Shown here in pieces: positions 398 to 64,000 of a stretch of 64,000 bases of DNA. The DNA comes from a virus. Each line of letters starts with the position of its first letter. Position 1 is the first letter of the stretch. The DNA lies in IMG/VR virus record IMGVR_UViG_3300045988_169405. One strand, written 5' to 3'. The position numbers and the translations under genes are program-made. The notes beneath the pieces were generated by a model, which worked only from the letters and a program-made list of their open reading frames with translations, was not told where the DNA came from and searched no databases.

Positions 398-452
398 CCA
401 TTATGGCACACTCTAGTTGGGTGTGCAACTTGGAACCATGTGAAATAGGTAA
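398..452 (-). promoter_or_regulatory. conserved promoter module: TGTGA-N6-TCACA-like palindrome + TTGCAC-N17-CATAAT
   Basis: copy 1. Confidence 0.55.
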
Positions 453-519
453 CAGTACACCAAAAGACCCCCTCCAAATCACAAGATTCAGAGGGGGCAA
501 CCGAAAGGTTAGGGACTAA

Positions 520-2121
520 CTAGCTCTTGTTTTCCCACGGGAAACCAGCATCAATACCACGCTCAAGAAGCGGGATAAGCTCGAACCCCTTATCAGTCAG
601 ACCACCAAGCGACCAGCGGCGCTCCTTAGCCTCCATATGAGCCGCCTCATACCCGGCAAGGTTCCAGGTGAAGACATTCACATGCGCCGGTACATAGCGG
701 TCAAGAACCTCATCGACAGTGTACTCATCACCCCAGTACCTACGGGCATTAAGGCTCTGCTCATCACTGATAATGAGGATACGGTCATGACCATTATAAG
801 ACTCACGCAGAGCCTTAGCGGTAGCGGTACCACCACGAGCCTCCGGCATGTCATTCTCAACAACACGCAACAGGTCATTAGAGGTAATCTTAACCTTCTC
901 AACCTGAGTATCGAACGCCACAACATCAACGCGACCCTTATTCTTCAGAGCAAAGGCGGCGGCGAACATGTTAGCGGCATCCTGACGCGACAGAGAGCTA
1001 CGCTCAGAAAGGCGGCTACCCATAGAGCCGGAACGGTCAAGAAGAAGCAGGGTGCGACCCGGCAACTCCGGCACATTATCCAGCACACTATTAGCACCCG
1101 CCTGTAGTGCGGCGGCAAAATCAAGCGGCGCGTTCTTGTAAGCGGCAAGGAAGTTAATCGGCATAGTCTTCGCACGCACAATAGCTTCCTCATCACGCAA
1201 CTTACGGTTAATCTTCTCGATAGTATCGTAAGACACACCCGCGTTGCTGATACGGCTCAGGTTCATACGAAGCGCCTGGTAACCCATATGGTCAATGAGG
1301 TTATCCCAAACCTCAGCCGGGATAACACCAATAGTACCCGCAATTACCTCATGGGTAAGACGCGCATCCTTGATGATACGGTCAGCGGATTCCTTATCGG
1401 AAAGAACCTTAATCTTCTCATCCTTGGTGAGGTTCAAGAAGTCACGGCGTGCCTTCATGACGGACAGCTCTTCAAGGTTCGGCTCACGACCGTAAGCAGA
1501 ATCAATGATAGCGCCGTACAGGTTCTCACGGTACTTATCAGACGGCTTCGGGTGAACAAGGTTCACCACATCAGCAAGAGTGAAAGCACCCTTAGCCATA
1601 CGACCCTGCCACTTCAAAACACTGTTCTCAGTAACAGACCTATTCAGGGCATCAGCAATACCACGCTTCACAGCAGACGGCACCTTACGACCAAAACGAG
1701 AGAACCAATAAGCCAGGAACTCACTAGACTCATCCAGACGACCAATAGCGGCAGAAACAAGGGCACGGTTACCACCACTCAAACCAGCCTCCAGGCGCGC
1801 ATGAACAGCTTCAGCGGCAATCATTGCCGGTACAGCACGAAGACCCGCCTCCTGGCGAAGCCAACCAATCAGACCCTCAAGCCAAACATTATCGTCTGCA
1901 ACCTGCTTCACAAGACCAGCGATACGGTCAGCACGCGCGTCAGCCTTCTCATAGAACGTATCCTCATTCAGCGAAGTAACGGCGGCTAGGAACAGCTCAG
2001 CCTTCGGGGTACGCTTCCAGCCGGTACCACCCTCAAAGGTGCTGATACGCTCGCCGGTAGTGTCAATCTTATTAGTCGCCTTGTTAGCGGTCACATGGTT
2101 CTTAGTGTTGAATCGTCCCAT
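520..2121 (-). CDS. rsr: Ro60/Rsr-like protein: N-terminal TROVE-like domain + C-terminal von Willebrand A domain (MIDAS motif D-R-S-G-S: LLLDRSGSMGS)
   Basis: 533 aa; the vWA DxSxS motif is read directly; TROVE+vWA architecture and size match Ro60; candidate Y-RNA repeats lie adjacent. Confidence 0.6.
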   Translation of the reverse strand: MGRFNTKNHVTANKATNKIDTTGERISTFEGGTGWKRTPKAELFLAAVTSLNEDTFYEKADARADRIAGLVKQVADDNVWLEGLIGWLRQEAGLRAVPAMIAAEAVHARLEAGLSGGNRALVSAAIGRLDESSEFLAYWFSRFGRKVPSAVKRGIADALNRSVTENSVLKWQGRMAKGAFTLADVVNLVHPKPSDKYRENLYGAIIDSAYGREPNLEELSVMKARRDFLNLTKDEKIKVLSDKESADRIIKDARLTHEVIAGTIGVIPAEVWDNLIDHMGYQALRMNLSRISNAGVSYDTIEKINRKLRDEEAIVRAKTMPINFLAAYKNAPLDFAAALQAGANSVLDNVPELPGRTLLLLDRSGSMGSRLSERSSLSRQDAANMFAAAFALKNKGRVDVVAFDTQVEKVKITSNDLLRVVENDMPEARGGTATAKALRESYNGHDRILIISDEQSLNARRYWGDEYTVDEVLDRYVPAHVNVFTWNLAGYEAAHMEAKERRWSLGGLTDKGFELIPLLERGIDAGFPWENKS

Positions 2122-2249
2122 GATAGGGGTTCCTTCCTATAGTTACTGTTTGGGGTGGCTGGTTGATGCCCCTTATCTGTTGTGCTTGCTTGTTTTTGGG
2201 TAAAAGAAATGGGGGTGCGGAGAACCAGCCATGTCGAGGTTAGTTACTA

Positions 2250-2455
2250 GCCGACAAAGGCGACCGGTTTCGTTGCAAATTTACAGATTTGTTTGAAGTA
2301 ACTCGACAAATTCACATCCACACCCCCAAAGGGGAGCAAATATATTACACTATATTCGCTAGTGCCCGTAGCAAGTTCGACCCTGCGTGTCACCTTTCAG
2401 TGCAACACCCCCTATTGGGGTGCGGGCTTTGAAGTGTTGGAATTGTAGAGAATGG
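2250..2455 (+). ncRNA. candidate Y-RNA-like / tRNA-like ncRNA, repeat unit 1 of 3 (strand uncertain)
   Basis: tandem ~235-bp repeat; T-arm-like GCAAGTTCGACCCTGCG at ~2370; hairpin CACCCC-ctatt-GGGGTG; adjacent to the Ro60 gene. Confidence 0.35.
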
Positions 2456-2464
2456 AGCTTATCG

Positions 2465-2700
2465 AGGGTGTTTGACTAGTCTAAAGGCGACCAGTTCATG
2501 ATTCTAAGCAATTCCCAAAATTGTTGAAGTAACTCGATAATCGCGCTTCTACAATTCCAAGTGTAGCACAGGGGTTATCCCCCTGCAAGTGTTCATAACA
2601 GGTTTGACTCTGTGTGCCACCTTTCGGCGCAACACCCCCTGCGGGGTATGAACTGTTATTGTGTTGAAGGTACAGAGAATTAGTCTCAATCGAGGTTGTA
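2465..2700 (+). ncRNA. candidate Y-RNA-like / tRNA-like ncRNA, repeat unit 2 of 3
   Basis: same unit; ACAGGTTTGACTCTGTG T-arm-like; hairpin ACCCC-ctgc-GGGGT (covariation versus unit 1). Confidence 0.35.
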
Positions 2701-2704
2701 TTTA

Positions 2705-2940
2705 ACTAGCCCGCCGGTTATTAGCCAGCAGGTGATTAGTTGTTAGCAATTCCCATAATTGTTTAGAAGTAACTCGATTGAATCGCTTCTGTACTCTCAA
2801 GTTTATTATAGCAAACCTTGTTTAGGCCTGCAAGTGCCTGTAGCAGGTTCGACTCTGCGTGCTCTGAGCACCCACCCTTATGGTGGTACAGGCTCCATTG
2901 GGCTCGCGCCCCCTTGGATAGCAACCGCAAGTCTTTCAGG
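2705..2940 (+). ncRNA. candidate Y-RNA-like / tRNA-like ncRNA, repeat unit 3 of 3
   Basis: same unit; GCAGGTTCGACTCTGCG (GGTTCGA T-loop-like); hairpin CACC-cttat-GGTG. Confidence 0.35.
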
Positions 2941-3037
2941 TTTCCCTGTCGTCCTTACACATATAACTATAACGTACCTGCGTGGGGTATGCAAGTCAAA
3001 AACTAACTATTTTCGTATGGGCTTCACCACACCCCTT

Positions 3038-3388
3038 TTACTGGGTGACATATGCTTCGATTCGACCGTTGCCGCAGTGGATAATGTGAGTGTCCTTAGC
3101 CTTGACGCGGGTGTTAGTGGTGTTGGTGTACATGTTGGTGGTTGCCGCTAGGTTGTATCGGAGCCAGTGGGTAGCGTTGCCGCCCTTTTCCATGTTTCGG
3201 ATTACGGGCTTGAGGTTGCTTGAGTTGAGGCGTTCTAGGGTTGCGCGGCGGGTGATGGTGGTGGTGGGTCGCCCCTTCTTGTCATTGAGTCGGAGGGCGG
3301 TGATGGTGCCGGTCTTCTTGTCGTATTCAATGGTGATGCGCTGACTGGCTCGCTTGTTGCGGCGGCTAAAAAGCTTGAAGATGTTCAT
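3038..3388 (-). CDS. hypothetical basic protein (116 aa)
   Basis: ORF; degenerate copy of the promoter module at ~2945-3010. Confidence 0.55.
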   Translation of the reverse strand: MNIFKLFSRRNKRASQRITIEYDKKTGTITALRLNDKKGRPTTTITRRATLERLNSSNLKPVIRNMEKGGNATHWLRYNLAATTNMYTNTTNTRVKAKDTHIIHCGNGRIEAYVTQ

Positions 3389-3478
3389 TGGTGGGTTCCT
3401 TTCAGTGTGTAGTGGTTTGGGTTACCCCCCCCTATGGGTGGTTTGTGTACCCATAGGGGGAGGGGCTGGTCTTTGGGG

Positions 3479-3838
3479 TTAGGGCTTCTCTACTACTTCT
3501 GCGACCAGGTAGAAGATGCCGATGTTATCTTCTTCAACCTTGACGTTCTGGAAGCCGTATCGCTTACCGTCACCAAGCGGGTTATCTAGAGTGACTGCGA
3601 GAAGCTGGACAATAATGTTGGTTCGTGCGATTACTACCCAGGTTTCCATGTCACTATCAGTCATATTGTCGCTGTAGTATTCGACTACGGGGTTAGGGAT
3701 AGGAAGAATGAACTCGCCGTATTCCTCCCAGGTGTCAGTGTCCAGGATGGTAGCGGTTGCAATGCGCGCACCGTTGCCGTTCTTCTCGTCAAACTCGTAG
3801 GTAATGTTTGCGATAGCGTCCATGACGGTTCCTTTCAC
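3479..3838 (-). CDS. hypothetical acidic protein (119 aa)
   Basis: ORF; promoter module upstream at 3903-3960. Confidence 0.6.
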   Translation of the reverse strand: MKGTVMDAIANITYEFDEKNGNGARIATATILDTDTWEEYGEFILPIPNPVVEYYSDNMTDSDMETWVVIARTNIIVQLLAVTLDNPLGDGKRYGFQNVKVEEDNIGIFYLVAEVVEKP

Positions 3839-3902
3839 AGGTGGTGAATCCTATAGGGGTTCCTATAGGGGGTTTCAGGGTTTCCCCCTTTGCTTATGTA
3901 AC

Positions 3903-3960
3903 TATTATGCCACACTCTAGCGGGGTACGCAAGTCGAAACAATGTGAACCTGGTCACATT
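3903..3960 (-). promoter_or_regulatory. conserved promoter module (ATGTGAACCTGGTCACAT + TTGCGT-N17-CATAAT)
   Basis: copy 2. Confidence 0.6.
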
Positions 3961-3982
3961 CTATTTGTGAGTGCATAAAACC

Positions 3983-4012
3983 CCCTAGCGGAACTATTAC
4001 TAGGGGGTTTCT
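3983..4012 (-). terminator. hairpin AAACCCCCTAG...CTAGGGGGTTT followed by TTTTAT on the minus strand
   Basis: inverted repeat; downstream of the stop of 4029-4442. Confidence 0.55.
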
Positions 4013-4028
4013 AGGACTACCTATAAGG

Positions 4029-4442
4029 TTAGGCGGTTAGCTCCAGCGGCTCCGGGTCAGCGTACCGCATAACAATGTTGCCGCTGTAACGCTCAAGGTG
4101 GGTAATCTTGAACTCAAGCGGGAAAGTCTGAGCATCAACCATAAGAGCCGCAATGTCACGAAGGATAGGTGAGGTGAGCGGGAACTCTGCCTCAAACTCA
4201 TAACCGCCGGTGCTAATCGTCACAAACAGGGACTTCATGGAATTACCAACGCCGTCCGGGTCTTCGTCCTGTCGAATCTGGAAGCCGGTAGCGGTCAAGT
4301 CCTGGTCGTTGATAGTGGCAATATCTTCAGGGTCGAACTTACCGTCAAAGAAGCCGAGGATAGTGAAACCAGAAACGAAAATACTGTTTTCGTACATGAT
4401 AGAGGGGTTCTCCTTGCGATTGGAAAATCTGACATGTACCAC
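4029..4442 (-). CDS. hypothetical protein (137 aa)
   Basis: ORF followed by hairpin terminator 3983-4012. Confidence 0.6.
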   Translation of the reverse strand: MVHVRFSNRKENPSIMYENSIFVSGFTILGFFDGKFDPEDIATINDQDLTATGFQIRQDEDPDGVGNSMKSLFVTISTGGYEFEAEFPLTSPILRDIAALMVDAQTFPLEFKITHLERYSGNIVMRYADPEPLELTA

Positions 4443-6329: not shown

Positions 6330-8030
6330 CGGTGGGAAGGGTGCATGACTGTTGCTGAGTTTATTGATATTGCGCCCATGATTTAATATTGATAATATTA
6401 GATACATTAGCCGCAACCCAAAGACACTAGAGAGGAGGGTGCGTTGGCAAAGAACAAAACCTATAGGGCGTTTGTCGCGCGCCCAACCCATGTTCTCGAC
6501 TTGAACGGTGAGCTACTGGAAGCCGCGCCTATCATGGCTCAGCTCACTACTGAGGTTCGCGGCATTTCGTCTTACGCAACTTACGTTACCCGTAACGACA
6601 CTCAGCTTGAGGCGGGTCTGGCAACGGCTGGCACTGCCCAGCCTGCGGTTGTGGGTCGCCGCGCGGGTATCACTATGCCCGAGTTTCTTGTAACCGGCAA
6701 GTCTGGTAGGTCGCGTAAAGAATGGCTGGTTAGGTATAACGTCGTCACAGCTTTCCGTTCCTGGCAGGAACGCATCAAAGCCGTAAACGGTGAAAGTGAT
6801 AAGTATGTTTCGCAGGGCTGGAAACGCACCGTGAATGACTCGGCCCCCACGTATGGCGAGGGCACTATCAATCTCGGTGCTGTAGACCGTTGCTACGCCG
6901 TAATTGAGAACAATCCGTTTGTTGATGGTGAGATTACCCTCAAGATGGTTATCCGTGGCGCATGGTATCGCCTATTTTTCCCCTTCGATAATACCCGCTT
7001 CACTGAGGGTAAGGTCACTTTGCCACTCATCAAGGTTCAGGACGGCGCGCCCGTTTTCATTTTCTCCGTGGTGACGGATAACCCGATTGTCCAGTTCTCT
7101 GGTGACTATGTTATCGGCGTGGATGTTGGTATCAATGATTATGCTACCGTCGTGGTTCGCAATACTGTAACGGGTGAAATCACTCACCAGACGACACTCT
7201 CTCAGCGTGTCCATTCGCTCTGGAATAGTGTTCGTGCGTCTGAGCGGCAGGTGCGTCAGCTTAGAGAGAAAGCCGCCCGGTTGTTGAATGACCGCCCATA
7301 TGAGCGTCAAGCAATTATGGCGGCACTAGACGAGGCACAACTCCACCGCAAGGCGGCCTCTAGGAAGAAACGTGAACTCGCTATCCTTGCCGCCCAGGAA
7401 ATTGCTTATTTGTCGCATTTCTTTGGTAATGCTGTTGTTGCTGTTGAAGACCTCAGCTGGATTACGAATACCATGCAGAACGGCAGGTGGAACAGGGGCG
7501 CGTTCACCCAATGGCTCACCCATTACGTCAGTCAGAATGGTGGGTGGGTCGTATCTGTGAGCTCTTTTAATACGTCGCAGGTATGCCATGTGTGCGGTGT
7601 GGAAGTCACACACCCTGAACACAGGGTATCTATATGCTCTAAGCACGGCATGATGGATAGGGACGTGAACGCCGCCGCAAACATTGCGGCGCGCGCTGTA
7701 CCGAAGGTTGAGAAGGCGCGTAAGAAGCGTTCCAGGAACAGTAAGCTCCAACCGCAGGCTCCTCTGAAAACCCCGGTAGCTAGGGGCTCTTTGAAGTACC
7801 CTGGTCGTGATAGGACGAAGAACGCGCCTACACCAAAAAGGAAGAACCACTCCCAAGTTTCTAGGGAGGTGACTCTTCCTTCTAGCCCCGCTAGGGCACA
7901 AGCAAAATGCTTGGAAGCCAGCGTACTAGCGGACTGCCTCGCATACGGTGTTGCAGGGACTTCTCAAGCGGCTATCAAACAGGGAACCATAACCAAATAT
8001 AGGTTATGTAGCCCTATTTGATACAGTATT
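6330..8030 (+). mobile_element. putative IS605-family (tnpB-only) insertion; ends not precisely defined
   Basis: opposite strand to every other gene; AT-rich left flank; right end abuts the stop of 8014-9099. Confidence 0.55.
6444..8021 (+). CDS. tnpB: IS605/IS1341-family TnpB (OrfB) RuvC-like nuclease; TTG start. The long C-terminal tail is probably read-through over the omega-RNA/right-end region
   Basis: RuvC-I IGVDVGINDYATVVV, RuvC-II AVEDLSW, Zn ribbon CHVCG...CSKHG, RuvC-III DRDVNAAANIA; only plus-strand gene; AT-rich 5' flank. Confidence 0.8.
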   Translation: MAKNKTYRAFVARPTHVLDLNGELLEAAPIMAQLTTEVRGISSYATYVTRNDTQLEAGLATAGTAQPAVVGRRAGITMPEFLVTGKSGRSRKEWLVRYNVVTAFRSWQERIKAVNGESDKYVSQGWKRTVNDSAPTYGEGTINLGAVDRCYAVIENNPFVDGEITLKMVIRGAWYRLFFPFDNTRFTEGKVTLPLIKVQDGAPVFIFSVVTDNPIVQFSGDYVIGVDVGINDYATVVVRNTVTGEITHQTTLSQRVHSLWNSVRASERQVRQLREKAARLLNDRPYERQAIMAALDEAQLHRKAASRKKRELAILAAQEIAYLSHFFGNAVVAVEDLSWITNTMQNGRWNRGAFTQWLTHYVSQNGGWVVSVSSFNTSQVCHVCGVEVTHPEHRVSICSKHGMMDRDVNAAANIAARAVPKVEKARKKRSRNSKLQPQAPLKTPVARGSLKYPGRDRTKNAPTPKRKNHSQVSREVTLPSSPARAQAKCLEASVLADCLAYGVAGTSQAAIKQGTITKYRLCSPI

Positions 8031-9129: not shown

Positions 9130-9393
9130 CTAGTAGGTATCTACGGTTTCGGTAATCTTGGTGTGGTTATTGGCGGTGTTCATCTCGAACCTAAATTCCT
9201 TAATGGTTGATTTCAAGCCGTCTTCAATGGTTACGGTAGCTTCACCGATAATCGGGTTCTTTAGCTTATCGTCTTCGTTTACATAGGTGAAAACGTCACC
9301 ACAGATTAGGAAGCCCTTAATGTTGTATTCTTCGATAGCGGCTTCCTTGACAGATTCTTCGATTACCTGGTCAATGGCATTAGAGATAGTCAT
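9130..9393 (-). CDS. hypothetical protein (87 aa)
   Basis: ORF; promoter module 9463-9518. Confidence 0.55.
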   Translation of the reverse strand: MTISNAIDQVIEESVKEAAIEEYNIKGFLICGDVFTYVNEDDKLKNPIIGEATVTIEDGLKSTIKEFRFEMNTANNHTKITETVDTY

Positions 9394-9462
9394 GGGGGTA
9401 TTCCTTTTCTGTGGTGAGTAGGTATTTCCTTGTGGCGGTATCCATAACCACCATTCATATAA

Positions 9463-9518
9463 CCATTATGACACACTCTAAACCCCTATGCAAGTTAGAA
9501 TTACGTGAAATAGGTAAC
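9463..9518 (-). promoter_or_regulatory. conserved promoter module
   Basis: copy 3. Confidence 0.55.
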
Positions 9519-9540
9519 ATAAAGAATTTAGTAAAGTAAA

Positions 9541-9575
9541 ACCCCCTAGAGGAAATACCACTAGGGGGTTCTACT
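9541..9575 (-). terminator. hairpin CCCCCTAG...CTAGGGGG
   Basis: inverted repeat after the pspA stop. Confidence 0.5.
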
Positions 9576-9590
9576 TAGTGAGTCACACTA

Positions 9591-10364
9591 CTACTTCTTG
9601 TTGTTTGCCTTCAGCTTTGCAAGCTCATCATCCAGGGCGGAATCAACAGCCAGAGAGTCCAGCTCATCGAAGCCGTCCTTTACCGGGTCAGCCATAATCT
9701 CCTGACGACCCTGAAGACGTGCCTCCTCACGGGCGATACGCTCTTCCCACTCATTCATAGGCGAGCTCAGGTTAGTACCATTGACGTTGATACTCTCAGT
9801 AGCGTCAAGGATACGACCCATAGCCTCATTCGTCTTATGACGTGCCAGAAGCTCATCACGCTGGTGGTGAGCCGCCGCCAGCTTCTCACGTGCATCATTC
9901 AGCTGACCCTTCAGAGAATCAACACGCGGGGTAGCAACCTTAATCTGCTCCTCAAGCTTCTCAGCAGTCTTCTCAGCGTTAGTACGGTTCTTCAGGGCGA
10001 TACGTGCCAGACCGTCAAACTTATCAGCCTGAGCCTCAGCCTTGGTACGTGCCGGGTCACCAACCTCAAGCTTCTCAGCCTGAGCACGGAACTCATCAGC
10101 CTTATCAGAAGCCGCCTGAGCCTTAACCTGCCACTCCTGAACCTTGCCCTGTTCCTTCTTATGGTCAGACTCCATGATGCGCAGGTTGCCGATAACCTCA
10201 GCAACATTACCCTCCGCTACACGAATCTCTTCCTTGTAGTCACGGATAAGCTGGTTCAGCATCTCCTGCGGGTCTTCCGCCTTATCAATTGCGGTGTTAA
10301 TCTTTGCGCGAATGAGGTTGTTGAAACGTGCAAAAATGCTGTTCTTGTTCTGGTTCTTACCCAT
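9591..10364 (-). CDS. pspA: PspA/IM30 (phage shock protein A / Vipp1 / LiaH) family coiled-coil protein
   Basis: the N-terminus MGKNQNKNSIFARFNNLIRAKINTAIDKAEDPQEMLNQLIRDYKEEI matches the PspA N-terminal helix (MGIFSRF..INALLEKAEDPQK); ~255 aa coiled coil; start chosen at the ATG preceded by GAAAGG. Confidence 0.75.
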   Translation of the reverse strand: MGKNQNKNSIFARFNNLIRAKINTAIDKAEDPQEMLNQLIRDYKEEIRVAEGNVAEVIGNLRIMESDHKKEQGKVQEWQVKAQAASDKADEFRAQAEKLEVGDPARTKAEAQADKFDGLARIALKNRTNAEKTAEKLEEQIKVATPRVDSLKGQLNDAREKLAAAHHQRDELLARHKTNEAMGRILDATESINVNGTNLSSPMNEWEERIAREEARLQGRQEIMADPVKDGFDELDSLAVDSALDDELAKLKANNKK

Positions 10365-10625
10365 TGTGGGTTTACCTAACCTTTCGTTGGTTAATGTTGT
10401 GGAACATGATTCACGGTCGCCCATCCTGTAGGGCTTCCTGTCTTTCGTGTGACCTTTTAGGGGTCATACTCAGAATATCAGGTTCCGGGGTTAAAATCTA
10501 GTGTATTACTGTATCGTCACCGACTGTTCACCTGTTGGAGCCAACCCTGCATACAAGGGGAAGGTGCTTCTTGTCTAGGGTAAATACCTAGCCAAGTTGC
10601 GAAATACATTCACTATAAGTCTTCC

Positions 10626-52208: not shown

Positions 52209-52285
52209 TAGGTATTCCTTTCGGGGAATCTATTGTAGCGGGCTTAGTGCCTTGGAAGTTATCTACCACTTCCTCGCTACACTTC

Positions 52286-54079: not shown

Positions 54080-54143
54080 GATTAGCACCTTTCGGTAGAT
54101 AGTGGAACTAGCTTTAGGGGTGATTCCCTATCGCTTATATAAC

Positions 54144-54202
54144 TATTATGCCACACCCTAACCGGGTGCGCAAGTCGAAACCATGTGAACCTAGTCACAT
54201 TT
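54144..54202 (-). promoter_or_regulatory. conserved promoter module (ATGTGAACCTAGTCACAT)
   Basis: copy. Confidence 0.6.
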
Positions 54203-54215
54203 AATAACAGGGGGG

Positions 54216-54524
54216 TTACCACCCCTCAATAACGGTAGCGAGTTGCTTCTTGTATTCCTCTATGGAGTCCTTGATAGCCTGAATGTCCAGGTCTTCAATT
54301 TTGCGTATGCGAATATCAGACGACTGATACCACACAGAGAGTGCCTTGTAGTGGTTACGCTTAGCGCAAATGTCCTTATAGAGGTTTCGGGCTTCACTGG
54401 AGCGCTCTATGTTACCAATGAAACGCATGGCACCCGCAAAACCGTCGGCAACCTGAGCGAGCGTATCAAATTCTTCAACACACTTCACTAGTTCACCTAG
54501 CCTTGCTAGAAGTTCCTGAATCAC
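54216..54524 (-). CDS. hypothetical protein (102 aa)
   Basis: promoter 54592-54655. Confidence 0.55.
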   Translation of the reverse strand: MIQELLARLGELVKCVEEFDTLAQVADGFAGAMRFIGNIERSSEARNLYKDICAKRNHYKALSVWYQSSDIRIRKIEDLDIQAIKDSIEEYKKQLATVIEGW

Positions 54525-54591
54525 GGTGGGGTACCTTTCATCTAGTGGGTAATCAGGTAGGCTTTAGGGCTATTCCCTAACGCTTATGTAA

Positions 54592-54655
54592 TCATTATGG
54601 CACAACAATAACCCCTATGCAATCTGAAATACTATGAAATAGCTCACATAGGGGT
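54592..54655 (-). promoter_or_regulatory. conserved promoter module
   Basis: copy. Confidence 0.6.
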
Positions 54656-54672
54656 TATAGGCTGTTATTCCC

Positions 54673-55888: not shown

Positions 55889-56269
55889 TTAGATGTAGTA
55901 GCTTACGGATACCTGGTGGGATTCAATCTGTCCGTTCTTGTCCGCGTGCTGTGAGCGTCCGTCGCAAATCTGTACGTCGTATTCGGTGACGCGGCGGTAC
56001 GGGTGCTCATTGTCGGTTCCGGCGGGTTCACGGGTTTCCTTAGCCCAGTCTTCGGTTCCTACGTAGCGCCATTCAAAGGTTGCCGGTTCGTAGTGGTCTT
56101 CGTCCTTCCAGCACCCCTCGTAGGTGGCTTTGGTGGGGTTGAAGCACCAACCCCATTCGTGGGTGCTCCATGACCTAGACGGCTTGTAGTTTCGCGTCTC
56201 AATAGGGGTGTCGGTGGTTTGCTGGTTGATGTAACAGCGGTTGGGGATAGATTCGCGGGTGATTAGCAA
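55889..56269 (-). CDS. Cys-containing protein, family member 4
   Basis: FEWRYVGTEDW...CDGRSQHADKNGQIESHQV. Confidence 0.55.
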   Translation of the reverse strand: MLITRESIPNRCYINQQTTDTPIETRNYKPSRSWSTHEWGWCFNPTKATYEGCWKDEDHYEPATFEWRYVGTEDWAKETREPAGTDNEHPYRRVTEYDVQICDGRSQHADKNGQIESHQVSVSYYI

Positions 56270-56480: not shown

Positions 56481-56852
56481 TTAGAAGTCGCCCTCGTAAT
56501 CTTCGTCGGTGAGGTATGCGTGGTACTTTGCCGCGATACCTTCCAGCTGTTCCAGCTTTTCGGGGGTGAACTCGGTGCGGGTGTGCAGGTCAATGATGGA
56601 CAGTGCCATGCTACGCTTTGCGCCTTCGAGCATGAGGGCGGCAAATTCCTTTGCGCCTTCCTTGTCACCGACAGCCTCCAGGTTTGCGATAGCTTCGTTA
56701 GCCTGGCGTGCAAGGTGAAGCATAGTACCTGCAAGGCTAATGTGGTTTACCGACAGGGCATTGGGGGCGCTCAGGGCGGCGAAACCGAACTCACTAGCGT
56801 CGTCCTTGAAGGACTTGTAATCAGCAATCAGAGCCTCGAAAGTAACCGACAT
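56481..56852 (-). CDS. hypothetical protein (start MSVTFEAL)
   Basis: promoter 56926-56988. Confidence 0.55.
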   Translation of the reverse strand: MSVTFEALIADYKSFKDDASEFGFAALSAPNALSVNHISLAGTMLHLARQANEAIANLEAVGDKEGAKEFAALMLEGAKRSMALSIIDLHTRTEFTPEKLEQLEGIAAKYHAYLTDEDYEGDF

Positions 56853-56925
56853 GATAAACACCTCTCAGTAGAGAAACAATAAATAAAACCTGTAGCTTTA
56901 GGGGTTATCCCCTTGCTACATTTCT

Positions 56926-56988
56926 ATTATGACACACCCATAACCCCTTTGCAACTCGAAAACGTGTGAATTGAGTCACAAAGGGGTT
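56926..56988 (-). promoter_or_regulatory. conserved promoter module (TGTGAATTGAGTCACA)
   Basis: copy. Confidence 0.6.
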
Positions 56989-57019
56989 ATGGGTATCCCT
57001 GTAGGGGTATATGGGCACT

Positions 57020-58355: not shown

Positions 58356-58676
58356 TTAGACATTGAAGTGTACGTAACCTTCTTCGGGGTCTACGTCGTA
58401 GACAGCTGACTTTTCAAACAGGTAGTACTCAGGGATTTCCTCGCCTTCGTAGCGTGCCCTAAGAGCGTCAAAGTCTTCAGTGTCTTCAGGCTGAGCGTCT
58501 ACATCGCGGCTACCGTGGTCGTTACCCAGGGTGAGGGTTAGGGTGCGGTCGTGGTCATTAAATTCAACACCCTCAACGATAAGTTCGCAACAGCCGGGGT
58601 ACTCGTAGTTGCGGTGAGGTGCAACCCCGTCGAGCTCCTCGAGGGGCATTTCAAAGGTGAAAGTAGCGAGAGACAT
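58356..58676 (-). CDS. hypothetical acidic protein
   Basis: promoter 58751-58810. Confidence 0.55.
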   Translation of the reverse strand: MSLATFTFEMPLEELDGVAPHRNYEYPGCCELIVEGVEFNDHDRTLTLTLGNDHGSRDVDAQPEDTEDFDALRARYEGEEIPEYYLFEKSAVYDVDPEEGYVHFNV

Positions 58677-58750
58677 GCTTGTAAACCTCTTTCAGTGGGT
58701 AGGTAGTGAACATGTTGCTAGGGTGTTTCCATAACGCCTTATATATATAA

Positions 58751-58810
58751 CTATTATGCCACACTATTTGGGGGTATGCAAGTTAAAATCATATGAAATA
58801 GCTCACATTA
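58751..58810 (-). promoter_or_regulatory. conserved promoter module
   Basis: copy. Confidence 0.6.
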
Positions 58811-58874
58811 CATTCGGGGTTAGCAACACCCACCCCCTAGTGACAGTTCAGCTAGGGGGGGGTATTTGCGTGAT

Positions 58875-59189
58875 TTACTGCTTTGCCTTGCGGTTGCGGA
58901 TTTCACGCTTCACAGTATTAACGAAGTGGTCTGCGGCTTCAAAGAACAACAGGGACTCATCTTCGGGACTGTAGAGGTGTACCTCATTTTCTTCTTCGTC
59001 AATGAGTGCCATGTAGTGACAGCCGTCAATCTCAACAGTCAGGCGGTCGTTAGCAATTGCAGAATCATATACGGGGAGGGTTTCATCACCGAACCACACT
59101 TCATCTTCAGAGCGACGCAGGGCGGTCGCAATATCCTTCAGGGTGAGGGTGATTTCCTCGGGGATTTCGATAATGCGGTAGTTGGTCAT
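58875..59189 (-). CDS. hypothetical protein (104 aa)
   Basis: conserved leader. Confidence 0.55.
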   Translation of the reverse strand: MTNYRIIEIPEEITLTLKDIATALRRSEDEVWFGDETLPVYDSAIANDRLTVEIDGCHYMALIDEEENEVHLYSPEDESLLFFEAADHFVNTVKREIRNRKAKQ

Positions 59190-59285: not shown

Positions 59286-59612
59286 TTACATGTAAGCCTT
59301 GAGATTTACAGCCTTAAGGTGCTCGCTCACACTCTGGAGGTCGCGAACCTCGTTTAGGCGTGCTTCATAGATGCCGTCAATATCAAGCTCACGGATAGCC
59401 TCCTGGTTTTCCTTTGCATTGGCAAACATGTCACGGTAAGCGCGTCCCTCGACATAGAGCGAGATGCGGATTTCTTCACCCTTTTCAACAGCTTCAGAGA
59501 TGCCAAGCTTTTCGCCCAGGAGTGCCATGTCACCGGCGGCGTGCATCAGGCGGTCGAGCTTGAGGCTCATTTTGAACATGTCGTTTGCCTTTGCCTTGTA
59601 TGCTCTGGACAT
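59286..59612 (-). CDS. hypothetical protein (108 aa)
   Basis: promoter 59681-59738. Confidence 0.55.
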   Translation of the reverse strand: MSRAYKAKANDMFKMSLKLDRLMHAAGDMALLGEKLGISEAVEKGEEIRISLYVEGRAYRDMFANAKENQEAIRELDIDGIYEARLNEVRDLQSVSEHLKAVNLKAYM

Positions 59613-59680
59613 TTTCGGTACCCCTTTCGGTGGGTGAATAGTGGAAGTAGCTTTAGGGGTTATCCCCTTGCTATACTTCC

Positions 59681-59738
59681 ATTATGGCACACCCTAGCCT
59701 GGTGCGCAAGTCGAAACCATATGAAATGAATCACATTG
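59681..59738 (-). promoter_or_regulatory. conserved promoter module
   Basis: copy. Confidence 0.55.
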
Positions 59739-59963
59739 TGGTTTTTTAATCCAGGGCTCCACATATTTAATGCCTAGAAATTTCATTAGGTAGGCACCTG
59801 TCCACCATCTATACCCACGCCATGCATGAACTTCATATTTACTCATTCGTTTCACCTGATAACAGGGAAAGCTCTTATACGCCAGGGTGGAAGTCAAAGG
59901 TAGTATTAGGGCGGTCTTATCTAGGGGGTTCATGGTACACCTGTTCTTTCGGCAAGCAACTAC

Positions 59964-60010: not shown

Positions 60011-60100
60011 TGCAATGAAATTCGTTCCTATGAAACTGTCAGTCGTGTCGGGGAATAACTGACAGTTTCATTATAACTGTAACTGGATTGCTGGGCAACC

Positions 60101-61181: not shown

Positions 61182-61700
61182 TTATTCGGTACCCAGCACT
61201 TCGTTGCCCTTCTTCTTGGCGTCTTCGTAGCGGTGCAGGAGGGTCTTAAATTCACGCTCGAAGATGCGCGCCTTCTTCTTGTGTGCGTTCAGGGCGGCGG
61301 TGAGGCGTGCTACCTTCATTTCTTCGAGGCTGGTCATGCCCTTCTCTTCGTAAGGTTCGGTAGCGAAGTCGCCACTACGGATTTCCTTAATGTCGTCGGT
61401 TGCAACCACGCGGTAGAGGTTTACACGGTTTGCGAACTTGTGGAGGTCGGTTACAAGCTGGCTGGACTCGATAGAGTGCCCCAGCTTGTCATCACTGAAA
61501 ACGTCGCTGTCGATAGCGTCCGCGAAACCCTTACCGTAAGAGCGAACCAAGGTATCCAACTGCATACGGTTCGGCTGGCGCTGGAATACATTAGCGTGCG
61601 CGCGGGCAATGATTTCCCAGTCGGTCATGCGCTTCAACGCCTCGCTACCGATACGGTCTGTGAGGGTGTTGATGGTGTCATTCAGGTTTGCGGTCTGCAT
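61182..61700 (-). CDS. hypothetical protein (172 aa)
   Basis: promoter 61770-61830. Confidence 0.55.
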   Translation of the reverse strand: MQTANLNDTINTLTDRIGSEALKRMTDWEIIARAHANVFQRQPNRMQLDTLVRSYGKGFADAIDSDVFSDDKLGHSIESSQLVTDLHKFANRVNLYRVVATDDIKEIRSGDFATEPYEEKGMTSLEEMKVARLTAALNAHKKKARIFEREFKTLLHRYEDAKKKGNEVLGTE

Positions 61701-61769
61701 GATGTCCAGCCTTCCAGTTGGTAGATAACGAACTGCACTCTAGGGGGTTTCCCTAATGCCTTATATAAC

Positions 61770-61830
61770 TATTATGGCACAATAATCACCCCCATGCAAG
61801 CCAGAACTATGTGAATTAGCCCACATAGAG
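61770..61830 (-). promoter_or_regulatory. conserved promoter module
   Basis: copy. Confidence 0.6.
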
Positions 61831-61851
61831 GTTTAGGGGGCTGGTTATGGG

Positions 61852-62232: not shown

Positions 62233-62310
62233 GTGGTTATTATATACAAAAAGCCCTTATGGGTGCTAGGTATAGTACCTAACACCCATAAGGGGGGGCA
62301 TAAGAGGGTA

Positions 62311-62601
62311 TTAGCCCTGAAGCTTTTCCAGGTGCTTAATGAACGCCCGCGCTACTCCATTCGCCTGCATGTCGATAAGCTCGCCACCCTTACCCCAGCC
62401 GTATGCGGCGAGCTTGCAGTTTTCGTTATCGCCCTTGATTACCTCTACCTCCAAGGTAATATCCGAAAAATCAGTGCGAACATGGCACTCGCCAATGGAC
62501 TCGGCGGGGTTGAACTTCGACATGTGCTCTTCCAGCTTGTCAATGCCACGGATTGCACGGTTAGGAACCATGATGGTAACTTCGTGGTTTGCATTGGTCA
62601 T
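62311..62601 (-). CDS. hypothetical protein (start MTNANHEV)
   Basis: promoter 62668-62728. Confidence 0.55.
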   Translation of the reverse strand: MTNANHEVTIMVPNRAIRGIDKLEEHMSKFNPAESIGECHVRTDFSDITLEVEVIKGDNENCKLAAYGWGKGGELIDMQANGVARAFIKHLEKLQG

Positions 62602-62667
62602 GATTAGCACCTTTCGGTAGACAGTGGAACTAGCTTTAGGGGTTATCCCCTTGCTACATTTCTATTA

Positions 62668-62728
62668 TGGCACAACAATAACCCCCATGCAAGTTAAAAC
62701 CGTGTGAATTAGCTCACATAGGGGTTAG
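62668..62728 (-). promoter_or_regulatory. conserved promoter module (GTGTGAATTAGCTCACA)
   Basis: copy. Confidence 0.6.
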
Positions 62729-62919
62729 GTAGTGAGTACTGGGGGGGGAATATGGAGGGTTTGCCGCTTACTCGATAGATAACACCCCTTATAGGGCTTA
62801 GTATCCCATAGGGGGCGCTCTACGCCTCTTAGGGGGTTATATTACCCCTTGGTGTACCACTTTTACCACCTAATCACTTAGGGGGCTCTATGGGGCTTCC
62901 AGGGGCTAATGAGGGGGTA

Positions 62920-63309
62920 TTAGGGGATATTGGTTAGCTCGGGGTTGAGCACCTGATATTCCTCCCCATTTTCGGGCTTCGTGTATTTTAGGGAATAGAA
63001 GGTAATCCAACCGTCACAGGTTCGCTCTTCGTCGGTATCATCTTCTTCCATTTCCCAGCACACTTCACATTCGCGCCTGTATTCAGCGACGGTTAGGGTG
63101 CCAATAAGGTTACCGTTAGCGTCTTGCAGGGTGATGCAACCTGGGGTGGATTCGCTGACATATCCGGTCATGTAGTATGACTTGTCATCTTCATAGAAGA
63201 AGTCGAGGCGGTCGCCGGGGTTCAGGGATGGGATAGTGTCGGTCATGTAGCCGAGCTTAGCCCATTCCTTAAATTCCTGGGCGGTAGTGGTAGCGGCGTG
63301 CTTACTCAT
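62920..63309 (-). CDS. hypothetical acidic protein
   Basis: ORF. Confidence 0.55.
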   Translation of the reverse strand: MSKHAATTTAQEFKEWAKLGYMTDTIPSLNPGDRLDFFYEDDKSYYMTGYVSESTPGCITLQDANGNLIGTLTVAEYRRECEVCWEMEEDDTDEERTCDGWITFYSLKYTKPENGEEYQVLNPELTNIP

Positions 63310-63428
63310 GGTGTGGTTCCTTTCAGGGGGGGTACTGTGTTTAGGTGCTCTTGATTGCTTGTGGGTCAGGGGTTTACCCCCCCCCTTGGTTTCCCAGGGG
63401 GGGGGGGTATCTATCTACCTTTTACGGC

Positions 63429-63908
63429 TTACGCGCCGTAAAGCTTCTGCCATGCGCGGACGGCATGGTGGTGGGCGGTCACGCCGGCTTCGTAACCATT
63501 CTCAGTGAAAGCCTTGATTGCGCCTTCCTGAAGGTTTACATCACTTGCTACGCGGTCGGTGCGAATCTTGAACATTGCGAGGTGACCGTTAGCGTCCGCC
63601 GTGTTGAAGGTTGAATCTTCGATACGTGCGTTGAAGACCTTAGCGGCATCAATCAGCTCTCGACCTGCTTCTACAAGGTTATCCATGATAGCCTCTACAG
63701 CGTGTTCGGCGGTGTAGGAAGCGACGAATCGGTCGGTCTTAGTAGCGGTGGTGTAAGGAACCTGTGCCTCGGGGTCGTTCGCCATTGCCGCGTGAAGCGC
63801 CTCAGCCTTGGCTAACAGCTCTGCGCGCTTACCGTCAATCTCATTAAGAAGCTCGCGAACCTTAGCGATTGCGTTTGCCTTAGCGGATACAACGTTTGCG
63901 TTAGTCAT
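63429..63908 (-). CDS. hypothetical protein (start MTNANVV, GGAGG RBS)
   Basis: promoter 63975-64000 (partial). Confidence 0.55.
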   Translation of the reverse strand: MTNANVVSAKANAIAKVRELLNEIDGKRAELLAKAEALHAAMANDPEAQVPYTTATKTDRFVASYTAEHAVEAIMDNLVEAGRELIDAAKVFNARIEDSTFNTADANGHLAMFKIRTDRVASDVNLQEGAIKAFTENGYEAGVTAHHHAVRAWQKLYGA

Positions 63909-63974
63909 GATGAACAACCTCCAAATAGGAAAAAGGGGGAAAATCTGTAGCTCTAGGGGTTTCCCTATCGCCTT

Positions 63975-64000
63975 ATATAACTATTATGCCACACTCTAGC
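63975..64000 (-). promoter_or_regulatory. conserved promoter module (truncated by the window end)
   Basis: partial copy. Confidence 0.4.

Follow-up and report, generated by a model that had tools for sequence, protein, structure and literature searches.

The DNA analysed here (the window) is a 64,000-nucleotide stretch from an uncultured phage of ~290 kb (roughly 290-310 kb) of the human mouth. About 25 gene groups in the window each begin with a common compact cassette. A scan for the promoter core TTGC-N16-18-nATAAT located 24 full copies of this module, 24/24 on the minus strand, and a 25th copy is truncated where the window stops; an independent repeat search returned repeat families of 16-22 copies. 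The roughly 25 repeated operator, promoter and leader modules proposed in a sequence-only reading of this DNA are real, and where that reading placed them before most minus-strand genes they were found to head most minus-strand transcription units. The cassette also contains a terminator-like stem-loop, absent from the earlier description, which in some copies precedes the operator and in others encloses both it and the -35 element.

All modules are given by their minus-strand intervals. An upstream hairpin accompanies module 1 (323-462; palindrome 439-454, TGTTACCTATTTCACA, 1 mismatch; -35 423-428; -10 400-405; predicted +1 393; strong hairpin 461-529, -29 kcal/mol), module 2 (3827-3966; palindrome 3943-3958, TGTGACCAGGTTCACA, 0 mismatches; -35 3927-3932; -10 3904-3909; predicted +1 3897; terminator-like hairpin 3970-4034, AAACCCCCTAG..CTAGGGGGTTTT), module 3 (9388-9527; palindrome 9504-9519, TGTTACCTATTTCACG, 2 mismatches; -10 9465-9470; predicted +1 9458; hairpin 9522-9599, -35 kcal/mol) and module 5 (15348-15487; palindrome 15464-15479, TGTGACCTATTTCACA, perfect including the central TA; -10 15425-15430; hairpin 15481-15553). 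The same arrangement occurs in module 8 (24905-25044; palindrome 25021-25036, TGTGGCTTAATTCATA, 2 mismatches; -10 24982-24987; hairpin 25045-25114, -38 kcal/mol), module 9, where the palindrome is shifted by 1 bp and the gap to the -35 is 9 bp (30928-31067; palindrome 31043-31058, TGTGGTATAAATCACG, 2 mismatches; -10 31005-31010; hairpin 31060-31139), module 11, which has a degenerate left half-site (39096-39235; palindrome 39212-39227, TATTGTATAAATCACA, 3 mismatches; -10 39173-39178; hairpin 39228-39285, -36 kcal/mol), module 15 (48852-48991; palindrome 48968-48983, TGTGGTCTATTTCACA, 1 mismatch; -10 48929-48934; hairpin 48986-49062, -31 kcal/mol), module 17 (52210-52349; palindrome 52326-52341, TGTGACCTATTTCACG, 1 mismatch; -10 52287-52292; hairpin 52349-52421, -37 kcal/mol) and module 21 (58676-58815; palindrome 58792-58807, TGTGAGCTATTTCATA, 1 mismatch; -10 58753-58758; hairpin 58810-58881, -31 kcal/mol).

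Inverted-repeat arms embrace the operator and the -35 in module 4 (12478-12619; palindrome 12594-12609, TGTGAGCTATTTCACT, 1 mismatch; -10 12555-12560; 12-nt repeat TAAACCCCTATG, arms 12608-12619 and 12569-12580). Embracing repeats are also present in module 10 (35723-35864; palindrome 35839-35854, TGTGAGCTATTTCATA, 1 mismatch; -10 35800-35805; 12-nt repeat ATAACCCCTATG, arms 35853-35864 and 35814-35825), module 13 (45019-45158; palindrome 45135-45150, TGTGGGCTAATTCACA, 1 mismatch; -10 45096-45101; 7-nt repeat AACCCCT), module 14 (46542-46682; palindrome 46658-46673, TGTGACCTAATTCATA, 1 mismatch; -10 46619-46624; 11-nt arms 46672-46682 and 46634-46644), module 16 (50947-51094; palindrome 51063-51078, TGTGACCCATTTCATA, 1 mismatch; -10 51024-51029; 10-nt arms 51085-51094 and 51032-51041), module 19 (54517-54658; palindrome 54633-54648, TGTGAGCTATTTCATA, 1 mismatch; -10 54594-54599; 12-nt arms 54647-54658 and 54608-54619) and module 20, whose repeat is the longest (56849-56994; palindrome 56965-56980, TGTGACTCAATTCACA, 0 mismatches; -10 56926-56931; 16-nt arms 56979-56994 and 56936-56951; leader hairpin GTAGCAAGGGGATAACCCCTAAAGCTAC, -15 kcal/mol).

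The other full copies are module 12 (41090-41229; palindrome 41206-41221, TGTGAGCTATTTCATA, 1 mismatch; -10 41167-41172; leader CACTATCTATCTACCTACCGAAAGG), module 18 (54068-54207; palindrome 54184-54199, TGTGACTAGGTTCACA, 0 mismatches; -10 54145-54150), module 22 (59604-59743; palindrome 59720-59735, TGTGATTCATTTCATA, 1 mismatch; -10 59681-59686; leader hairpin GGGGATAACCCC), module 23 (61694-61833; palindrome 61810-61825, TGTGGGCTAATTCACA, 1 mismatch; -10 61771-61776), module 24 (62587-62727; palindrome 62703-62718, TGTGAGCTAATTCACA, perfect with central TA; -10 62664-62669; leader with the GGGGATAACCCC hairpin and CTACCGAAAGG) and a tandem pair. Module 6 of this pair is the promoter of a tRNA cluster and has neither mRNA leader nor ribosome site (23692-23761; palindrome 23738-23753, TGTGACACGAAACACA, 1 mismatch; -10 TATAAT 23699-23704; predicted +1 23692, 33 nt before tRNA-Glu at 23659), and module 7 is a second promoter 128 bp upstream of it (23820-23889; palindrome 23866-23881, AGTGACGCACATCACA, 1 mismatch; -10 23827-23832). 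Module 25 (63906-64000; repeat family D7) retains only GCTAGAGTGTGGCATAAT and the leader within the window, with the -10 at 63983-63988 and the -35 and palindrome beyond base 64000.

The embracing inverted repeat occurs in about one third of modules, with an RNA minimum free energy (MFE) of -24 versus -12 (z = -4.9). The 75 nt upstream of modules lacking it fold to a mean of -25 kcal/mol, 86% being at or below -15, versus a mean of -14 and 43% at or below -15 where it is present. The 5' leader hairpin has a mean MFE of -9.5 kcal/mol versus -4.5 kcal/mol for shuffles, and 94% of leaders fall below -5. Both stem-loops are conserved as structure. The leader hairpin of the sequence-only reading thus stands as a structure, but its stems vary in sequence and GGGGATAACCCC is only one version; likewise, GAAAGG of the proposed ribosome site is present in 61% of leaders, the longer CTACC..GAAAGG in just 33%.

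The cassette recurs in more than 100 metagenomic loci on contigs of 215-306 kb and on one IMG/VR contig, and about 300 further copies were found in related metagenomic phage contigs of 250-313 kb. The clade set comprises 330 unique promoter cores, 301 of which carry the palindrome at 8/10 or better. Part of the 300-copy set underlying the counts below was retrieved with a pattern demanding TTCAYA, TTGC and GTGTGnCATAAT, so that conservation at those positions is inflated; the left half-site was never in any retrieval pattern. Loci fetched through a TnpB gene, independently of the pattern, have the palindrome on 10/10 (L152) and 7/7 (L155) cores. The cassette is restricted to one genome region and is absent from three non-early loci totalling 64.7 kb.

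The promoter core consists of a -35 TTGC, a 17-bp spacer and the -10 TGTGnCATAAT, which is an extended -10 because an invariant TGTG precedes the hexamer. The TTGC, the spacer length and CATAAT had been proposed earlier, and the clade copies bear them out (CATAAT in 287/300). The predicted start site has a purine at +1 in 297/300 copies and a pyrimidine at -1 in 296/300. The promoter fits the description of Corynebacterium sigmaA promoters, ttgnca / TAnnnT, in which an extended -10 is frequent and CATAAT is functional as a -10 (PMC3890552, PMC5483222).

The palindrome consensus over 300 clade copies is aTGTGAccTAtTTCAcAt, exactly 10 bp from the -35 (in 297/301 copies) and centred at -53.5 relative to the predicted +1, in agreement with the ~10 nt and the centre near -53 first estimated. 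The CRP-family half-sites and 6-bp spacing also held, the consensus matching CRP/GlxR with the central TA included (T in 202/300 copies, A in 234/300), whereas only a subclass, about a third of the copies, has the CCCCTA placed upstream of the palindrome. Within the window, exact TGTGA-N6-TCACA was observed 5 times versus 0.07 expected; at the fixed module position there are 0 mismatches in 5 copies, 1 in 15 and 2 in 2, and the remaining two are the shifted and the degenerate palindromes of modules 9 and 11. The central six bases are asymmetric, with T at -51 in 267/300 and C or G at its symmetry partner, -56, and a T-tract at -42 to -40, beyond the CRP core, is also conserved. Across 36 orthologous promoter groups from different phages, the half-sites diverge by 0.12-0.135, the upstream flank by 0.38 and the spacer by 0.30, and the palindrome is under purifying selection as strong as that on the core promoter. 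No compensatory double changes were found at any of the five arm pairs in the 300 copies (111 distinct 16-mers), and deviations in one arm, among them G-C to T-C (17 times) and to A-C (8 times), go uncompensated. Slow evolution like that of the core promoter, together with the lack of compensatory arm changes, makes the palindrome read as a protein site and argues against the RNA element that the sequence-only reading had named as its refuting alternative.

The phage encodes a sortase, a signal peptidase and SecA, and a lysin combines GH25 (E = 1e-40), an LGFP repeat (25 bits, cut-off 22) and NlpC/P60. Of the 99 phage records that match the fragment of the GH25 lysin, 56 are Mycobacterium phages, and the best hits of a Ro-like protein and an RNA ligase are in Arthrobacter, Microbacterium, Streptomyces and Gordonia phages. 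GAAAGGA ribosome sites are common to Arthrobacter phage Atuin and these modules. Because of the sortase, the GH25-LGFP lysin, the actinophage best hits and the ribosome site, the host is taken to be an oral Gram-positive bacterium, probably an actinobacterium; both genome-collection scans for the host were without match. Actinobacterial CRP homologues, GlxR and CRP-Mt, recognise a box of the kind found here. The dyad consensus equals the actinobacterial GlxR/CRP consensus TGTGANNTANNTCACA, central TA included, as described for the GlxR box of Corynebacterium (PMC4254451, PMC7999487), and binding by a CRP-type protein appears the most likely reading of the dyad.

We propose that the modules are self-contained early cassettes whose dyad would be bound by a CRP/FNR-type dimer, likely the host GlxR/CRP, an explanation that, taken whole and judged from sequence, has about an even chance of being right. 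The early timing is suggested by gene content and strand; which protein binds, where it originates and whether it activates or represses are what we infer. The stem-loop, as a separate hairpin just upstream or as arms embracing the operator and -35, would act as a terminator or insulator that ends the previous unit. The 16-bp dyad ATGTGA-N6-TCACAT, fixed 10 bp from the -35 with its centre at -53.5, would bind a single dimeric helix-turn-helix protein whose specificity is of the CRP/FNR type, the likeliest candidate being host GlxR/CRP. Positioned immediately ahead of the -35, this dimer would make class-I-like contact with RNA polymerase. A strong promoter for the host primary sigma would start at Y(-1)R(+1), and the transcript would carry a 5'-proximal stem-loop, probably mRNA-stabilising, followed by unstructured, C/A/T-rich sequence and, about 8-9 nt ahead of the start codon, a GAAAGG Shine-Dalgarno. 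Over an early region of ~110 kb, about 50 or more promoters would all be switched together. Since about 25 gene groups start with the same cassette, one DNA-binding dimer, probably the host cAMP receptor protein, could control the whole early programme. PeSLs, a feature of T4-like phages, combine a terminator with an early promoter in repeated units and mediate shuffling (PMC2839356, PMC4122927). Our verdict is a PeSL-like early cassette to which a putative CRP-type operator is added.

The operator position complicates a host-CRP reading. In E. coli, activation by CRP takes place from -41.5, -61.5, -71.5 and so forth, and -53.5 is not among the classical class I or class II positions of that species; being about 8 bp off the -61.5 register, it does not allow the class-I mechanism to be simply transferred. 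In favour of the host-CRP reading, M. tuberculosis CRP sites are located at -55.5, -58.5 and -62.5 from start sites (PMC4117774). The asymmetric centre exceeds what CRP specificity alone predicts; common descent of the copies, gene conversion between them or binding by another protein may account for it. Also against host CRP, tying every early promoter to one host signal is a risk for a lytic phage, and phages commonly make a shut-off repressor of their own.

A less probable explanation is that the dyad serves as operator for a dimeric regulator encoded by the phage and made early or delivered with the virion, which could lack any relation to CRP or be a diverged mimic of it. Its most plausible role would be joint shut-off or autoregulation of the early promoters at the early-to-middle switch, by occupying -62 to -45, otherwise the site of the polymerase alpha C-terminal domain. 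The non-canonical position and the conservation beyond the CRP core favour such a regulator. So do the rigid spacing and the fact that the operator, present about once per 2 kb, is strictly confined to a single promoter class and a single genome region. Phage proteins commonly shut off early genes in a coordinated way, and the conserved inverted repeats of phiC31 and the stoperators of L5 are repeated operators adjoining early promoters. However, no CRP-like, helix-turn-helix or other DNA-binding Pfam domain was detected in the 73 window ORFs of at least 70 aa, a search that small regulators often escape, and no CRP homologue was found in 1.2 Mb of clade DNA, which covers part of the genome. 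An unrelated protein would, moreover, have to coincide with the CRP/GlxR consensus at 10 core positions and the central TA.

It is unlikely that no dedicated regulator is involved, with -62 to -36 serving as an UP-element-like intrinsic element read by polymerase alpha, or with the cassette spread and homogenised by recombination as a PeSL and its dyad symmetry incidental. The copies share sequence from -70 to about +60, far beyond one binding site; homology-block ends between related phages fall at modules in 23.5% of cases, where a uniform distribution would give 6.8% and intergenic positions 19%; PeSLs are known to mediate shuffling; and -62 to -36 covers the usual UP-element position. UP elements are, however, A/T tracts without dyad symmetry, whereas here the symmetry takes in five of five half-site positions and the adjoining A/T, all of which agree with an established protein consensus. 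The half-sites diverge by 12-13.5% where adjacent non-coding positions reach 30-38%, and this low divergence within diverged orthologous promoters indicates that their bases are selected, not merely co-inherited.

Least probable is a nucleic-acid structure, either an RNA hairpin in read-through transcripts (terminator, processing or stability) or a DNA cruciform: the arms can pair (5-7 bp, -4.6 kcal/mol) with a short T-run after them, G-U pairs would be retained by the frequent right-arm variants (C to T at -47, A to G at -46), a longer inverted repeat embraces the palindrome in one third of modules, where RNA pairing between the left half-site and the -35 is possible, but the hairpin is weak, left-arm changes stay unpaired, the MFE fold of the embracing-repeat class pairs the palindrome arms in only 11/105 copies, Rfam gave no match, the stronger terminator-like stem-loops are separate features, and conservation is of base identity, not of pairing.

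The module recurs 24 times in full in the window, as located by promoter-core anchoring, and a 25th copy is truncated by the window end. All copies lie on the minus strand, before minus-strand ORFs or the tRNA cluster. The exact palindrome TGTGA-N6-TCACA occurs 5 times in the window versus 0.07 expected, and the repeated palindrome-bearing module of about 25 copies described in the sequence-only reading is thus real. With up to 2 mismatches allowed, 44 matches were observed in the window versus 25.7 expected, the good matches being regularly placed, and a repeat search of the window returned families of 16–22 copies with a unit of 47–120 nt. At its fixed position in the module the palindrome has no mismatch in 5 copies, one in 15 and two in 2, such that 22 of the 24 copies carry at most 2 mismatches over 10 positions. 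One of the remaining copies has a palindrome shifted by 1 bp and the other has a degenerate left arm.

A metagenome pattern scan yielded more than 105 module-bearing loci from source contigs of up to 306 kb, including ERZ1674288, ERZ1674051, QWBZ01000001, QWCL01000005, QWCO01000015 and the ODJI and ODIT sets. Two pattern scans of IMG/VR added one related contig; each of the 41 other loci showed one match, by chance. From all clade loci, 330 unique promoter cores were extracted under relaxed criteria. The palindrome matches at 8 or more of the 10 positions in 301 of these, 297 of which have a gap of exactly 10 bp to the −35 element; because the metagenome loci were retrieved with a pattern requiring TTCAYA, TTGC and GTGTGnCATAAT, conservation is inflated at those motifs. 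Unbiased checks are provided by the window, which lay outside that retrieval, and by the left half-site, which is in none of the patterns. A third unbiased check comes from two loci fetched through the TnpB-like gene, where the palindrome is present in 10/10 and 7/7 cores. The logo, built from the 300 copies with a 17-bp spacer, reads aTGTGAccTAtTTCAcAt from −62 to −45, with the highest information content at G−60, T−59, C−49 and A−48. A central TA is prevalent (T at −54 in 202/300 copies and A at −53 in 234/300), and a T-tract follows at −42 to −40.

The promoter core comprises TTGC(A) at the −35 position, GTGTGn at −18 to −13, a −10 hexamer CATAAT at −12 to −7 (C in 287 of the 300 copies, T in 13), A/G at −6 and G at −5. 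Position −1 is a pyrimidine in 296/300 copies and position +1 a purine in 297/300. With hexamers 17 bp apart, a TGn extended −10 and a predicted purine start about 7 nt downstream, the module core has the sequence features of a primary-sigma promoter with an extended −10. It is in agreement with Corynebacterium sigmaA promoters, which have the elements ttgnca and TAnnnT with a frequent extended −10 (PMC3890552, PMC5483222), and CATAAT works as a −10 element in C. glutamicum (PMC5483222). Over its first 42 nt the predicted transcript folds with −9.5 kcal/mol compared with −4.5 kcal/mol for shuffled sequences, and 94% fall below −5 kcal/mol. The stems of this 5′ hairpin vary in sequence among copies, which indicates that it is conserved as a structure. 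The ribosome site GAAAGG occurs in 61% of the leaders, about 48 nt from +1 and mostly 8–9 nt ahead of the start codon.

A terminator-like stem-loop was overlooked in the earlier description. In many copies a GC-rich hairpin, often followed by Ts, lies between the upstream stop codon and the palindrome, for example AAACCCCCTAG-N11-CTAGGGGGTTTT ahead of module 2. About one third of the copies do not have this upstream hairpin and instead carry AACCCCTAT directly 5′ of the palindrome, with the complementary ATAGGGGTT located in the −35/−10 spacer. The resulting inverted repeat, up to 16 nt long, embraces the operator and the −35 element, and the region folds as RNA with −24 kcal/mol versus −12 kcal/mol when shuffled (z = −4.9). 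In modules without the embracing repeat the upstream 75 nt form hairpins with a mean of −25 kcal/mol, 86% being at or below −15 kcal/mol, whereas in modules with the embracing repeat the mean is −14 kcal/mol and 43% reach −15 kcal/mol. The two stem-loop layouts are complementary, and the cassette therefore includes a putative terminator/insulator stem-loop in one of the two. Covariation of CCCCTA...TAGGGG in every copy was rejected, as this pairing is confined to about one third of the copies; within that class the complementarity is copy-specific to a modest degree (mean 8.1 versus 6.9 in permutations).

Some transcription signals of the window fall outside the cassette family. A terminator with a 19-bp stem followed by a T-run occupies 62254–62294 (minus strand), in a gap of the crude ORF map, and a good sigma70-type promoter, TTGCCC-N17-TATAAT, lies at 60070–60098 (minus strand) without a palindrome.

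The window is phage DNA, with one cluster of 17 tRNA genes, a nearly single-strand gene layout and mostly ORFs without a Pfam match. The Pfam scan, which took in all window ORFs of at least 70 aa, concatenated, matched TROVE/vWA (Ro60-like), RNA ligase, SPFH/flotillin, PspA and the TNB domain of TnpB, with three matches sub-threshold. No nucleotide match emerged when 20 kb of the window was compared by megablast with 50,697 phage records. For the Ro-like protein and the RNA ligase, the best protein matches come from large actinophages that infect Arthrobacter (Atuin, Racecar), Microbacterium, Streptomyces and Gordonia, at 34–39% identity. An identical Ro-like protein is present in the assembly of run ERR589706 and an identical TnpB on a JGI contig of 291,867 bp. 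Many jumbo phages of ~200–300 kb or more are reported from human oral sites, based on datasets from China and the USA, in a preprint where the module motif is undescribed (10.1101/2020.07.06.186817), and a literature search found no paper on this phage clade or motif.

Scans of reference genomes with the module pattern and with the TnpB protein were both empty, and thus gave no host link via prophages or IS copies. Other clues to the host came from non-early loci of related genomes, which were reached through TnpB paralogues. Three of these (L154, QWCL01000005.1 203–225 kb; L156, QWBZ01000001.1 139–161 kb; and L151) contain secretion and surface genes that are unusual for a phage. SecA, encoded in full length (938 bits to the SecA equivalog), is accompanied in the related genomes by signal peptidase I and a sortase. 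Two surface proteins, one with CshA repeats (1,017 aa) and one P1-adhesin-like (943 aa), are encoded as well, as is an NlpC/P60 protein that resembles RipC and DIP1281. A 997-aa lysin carries GH25 (E = 1e-40) together with NlpC/P60 and an LGFP repeat, whose 25 bits exceed the Pfam cut-off. Its GH25 fragment matches 99 phage records, of which 56 are Mycobacterium phages. The sortase implies a Gram-positive host. Taken together, the GC content of the window (50%), the LGFP repeat of the lysin, the relatedness to actinophages and the use of GAAAGG as a ribosome site, shared with Arthrobacter phage Atuin, lead us to infer an oral actinobacterium such as Corynebacterium or Rothia.

Selection on the palindrome was assessed in 36 orthologous promoter groups, in each of which promoters of different phages precede the same gene. 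Divergence per site is 0.12–0.135 for the half-sites, compared with 0.38 for the upstream flank, 0.30 for the −35/−10 spacer and 0.30 for the leader, which argues for selection on base identity about as strong as that on the −35 element and the extended −10. The GlxR consensus of actinobacteria is TGTGANNTANNTCACA (PMC4254451; also PMC7999487), whose central TA is carried by the module dyad, and the CRP box of PMC10187061 equals the module consensus. Since the dyad matches the CRP/GlxR consensus and the likely host group uses it, a CRP-family dimer is the most likely ligand. Queried by phmmer with E. coli CRP, the 6,850 ORFs of the clade loci (1.2 Mb) gave no homologue below E = 1, and none was found among the window ORFs. 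Because no CRP-family gene was found in the phage DNA examined, a host protein is the leading candidate; the chance that the ligand is a CRP-type protein of host origin is put at about even. The dyad consensus, the fixed spacing and the base-level selection lend partial support to the earlier CRP-operator interpretation, of which the CRP-family ligand stays a candidate assignment.

The module resembles CRP/GlxR promoters (E. coli CAP class I, C. glutamicum GlxR, M. tuberculosis CRP) in its 16-bp dyad with a central TA, as in GlxR, and A/T flanks, and in the predicted placement of the site upstream of, and adjoining, the −35 element of a primary-sigma promoter. It differs in that the dyad is centered at −53.5 relative to the inferred +1, and not at −41.5 or −61.5, which is outside the E. 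coli class I and class II positions. M. tuberculosis CRP sites mapped by ChIP-seq lie at −55.5, −58.5 and −62.5 (PMC4117774). Whereas host CRP regulons have scattered and degenerate sites, the module presents dozens of near-consensus candidate sites at one identical position. A CRP-family dimer at −53.5 would sit directly against the −35 element and sigma region 4, at the usual site of the alpha C-terminal domain, and could act by class-I-like activation or by occlusion as a repressor. The cassette is best read as a self-contained early transcription unit, in which a stem-loop and a dyad operator precede a strong host-sigmaA promoter, followed by a probably stabilizing 5′ hairpin and a ribosome site.

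A regulator made by the phage itself is a less probable ligand that still merits consideration. Streptomyces phage phiC31, a temperate phage of ~41 kb, has early promoters with conserved inverted repeats that are bound by the phage repressor. As in phiC31, an actinophage genome carries many near-identical early promoters, each with an inverted-repeat operator that would place them under the control of one protein. The sequence of the repeat differs, however, and that of the module is the consensus of a host global regulator whereas the phiC31 ligand is its own repressor. The Pfam scan of window ORFs of at least 70 aa detected no DNA-binding domain, and a regular-expression search of the clade loci detected no WhiB-like protein. 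Mycobacteriophage L5 and further phages of cluster A have stoperators, which are asymmetric 13–14-bp sites, in or between genes, that block elongation. They share with the putative module sites the tens of copies and the single orientation relative to transcription, but in the module the dyad is symmetric and its position relative to the promoter is fixed. It is improbable that the dyad block is an intrinsic or recombination-maintained promoter element.

A role of the palindrome as an RNA or DNA structure is very improbable, for among the 300 copies (111 distinct 16-mers) no double compensatory change occurs at any arm pair, one-arm changes stay unpaired (G-C to T-C 17 times, A-T to T-T 22 times) and the palindrome hairpin alone is weak (−4.6 kcal/mol). 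The covariation test is hence negative for the RNA element that the sequence-only reading had named as the alternative to its operator, and the data favor a protein site over a nucleic-acid structure. An intrinsic terminator or RNA hairpin was rejected on the same absence of compensatory pairs, the weak stem and the absence of an Rfam match. Rfam searches over the window matched tRNAs alone, and those over 2100–3500 gave no match at E ≤ 1.

The modules are densely spaced, with 36 cores in 68 kb of ERZ1674288 and 33 in 70 kb of QWBZ01000001, on a single strand at about one per 2 kb, and module-bearing loci span ~110–120 kb of each of these two genomes. They are absent from 64.7 kb of non-early DNA with large structural, secretion and lysis genes (L151, L154 and L156). 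In 91.6 kb of Arthrobacter phage Atuin, the closest cultured relative, there is no module and no enrichment in CRP boxes. A second repeated (late) promoter was sought in one non-early locus, where only TnpB copies turned up. Comparison of the window with related phages gave 366 internal ends of homology blocks, 23.5% of which lie in modules versus 6.8% if uniformly distributed; modules make up 19% of intergenic positions and account for 31% of the intergenic homology-block ends. Some replaced gene blocks are module-bounded, such as window 45158–48925 relative to a locus from a related genome (L120). These values lend modest support to a possible role in mosaicism like that of the PeSL (promoter-early stem-loop) cassettes found in T4-like phages (Arbiol et al. 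2010, PMC2839356; Comeau et al. 2014, PMC4122927).

Both PeSLs and modules are short composite units of a terminator stem-loop and an early promoter, repeated many times on one strand. Both precede small genes of unknown function in a plastic region; PeSLs tend to edge swapped or inserted blocks, and the modules may do so as well. The coupling of a stem-loop to a repeated early promoter, which defines PeSLs, is found in the modules as well. In contrast to PeSLs, the module belongs to a phage of another lineage with a ~300-kb genome and probably an actinobacterial, Gram-positive host. It adds a 16-bp dyad operator at a fixed position, its stem-loop may wrap the operator and the −35 element, it includes a conserved 5′ hairpin and ribosome site, and its link to mosaic boundaries is modest. 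Membership in the PeSL family of T4-like myoviruses of Gram-negative hosts was rejected based on the lack of a nucleotide match to phage records, the actinophage protein relatives, the sortase and the LGFP lysin. The module works like a PeSL and is outside that family.

Repeated early promoters and promoter/terminator cassettes are already known in large phages. The new elements are a CRP-type box at a fixed position in all copies, an operator/−35 layout embraced by a hairpin, and the setting in a prevalent, uncultured clade of ~300-kb oral phages. A near-consensus box for a host global regulator, locked to each of the early promoters of a jumbo phage, is unfamiliar. We tentatively propose, with somewhat less than even confidence, that this widespread oral ~300-kb phage clade has wired its entire early region (~110 kb, at least 50 promoters) to host GlxR/CRP through a near-consensus box at the unusual fixed position −53.5, such that the cAMP or metabolic state of the host gates the start of infection, and has fused terminator, operator and promoter in a hairpin-embraced unit not described before. 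If the ligand is host CRP/GlxR, a phage clade abundant in human oral metagenomes would clearly exemplify a lytic program that depends on a second-messenger signal of the host. If the ligand is a phage protein, the dyad offers a handle on the early-switch regulator of an uncultured phage family. The module is short and portable and has a model relative in C. glutamicum GlxR, and it is therefore directly testable. The cassette is a ready-made strong promoter, 5′ UTR and ribosome-site part for actinobacteria, and the ~300 natural copies form a variant set for studying a class-I-like activator at −53.5.

Several further features of the window were observed. The sole large plus-strand gene (6444–8021) encodes a TnpB/Cas12f-like protein (PF07282) with at least 2,811 relatives (E ≤ 1e-20), the best 120 of which are ~77–91% identical. 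Many are encoded on ~250–313 kb contigs in two or more copies per genome at differing positions, and no relative was found in a protein search of 185,579 reference genomes. The gene seems to be an IS-like element that has multiplied in the clade. Three tandem units of ~235 nt (2240–2900, minus strand) lie upstream of the Ro60-like gene (520–2121). In every unit a GAAG..CGAGTTACTTC stem is conserved, and a T-arm resembling that of tRNAs is present (e.g. CACGCAGAGTCGAACCTGC). A separate promoter without a palindrome, TTGCAG-N17-TATAAT at 2805–2833, belongs to the first unit. These units look like YrlA-type Y RNAs paired with Ro60, albeit with no Rfam match at E ≤ 1. Within the tRNA cluster, ARAGORN predicts a 78-nt tRNA with a four-base anticodon (taac) at 22913–22990 (minus strand; Rfam tRNA 38 bits), which could be quadruplet-decoding, suppressor-like or a degenerate copy.

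Four small paralogous proteins are encoded on the minus strand at 32952–33398, 37858–38331, 42595–43041 and 55889–56269. They share a C-terminal motif, (E/Q)WRY..., CDGRE.H....G.I..H.V...(F/Y)(Y/F), preceded by a signal/membrane segment, and form an early gene family of several copies for which Pfam gave no match. A 135-nt repeat (38347–38481 and 38707–38841, 72% identity) accompanies adjacent paralogous ORFs at 38368–38688 and 38728–39096, which indicates a local tandem duplication in the early region. PspA/IM30 (9591–10424, minus strand, E = 1e-28) and SPFH/flotillin (31151–32728, minus strand, E = 6e-21) are membrane-stress or membrane-organizing proteins under module promoters, and a band-7-like gene is also present in Arthrobacter phage Atuin.
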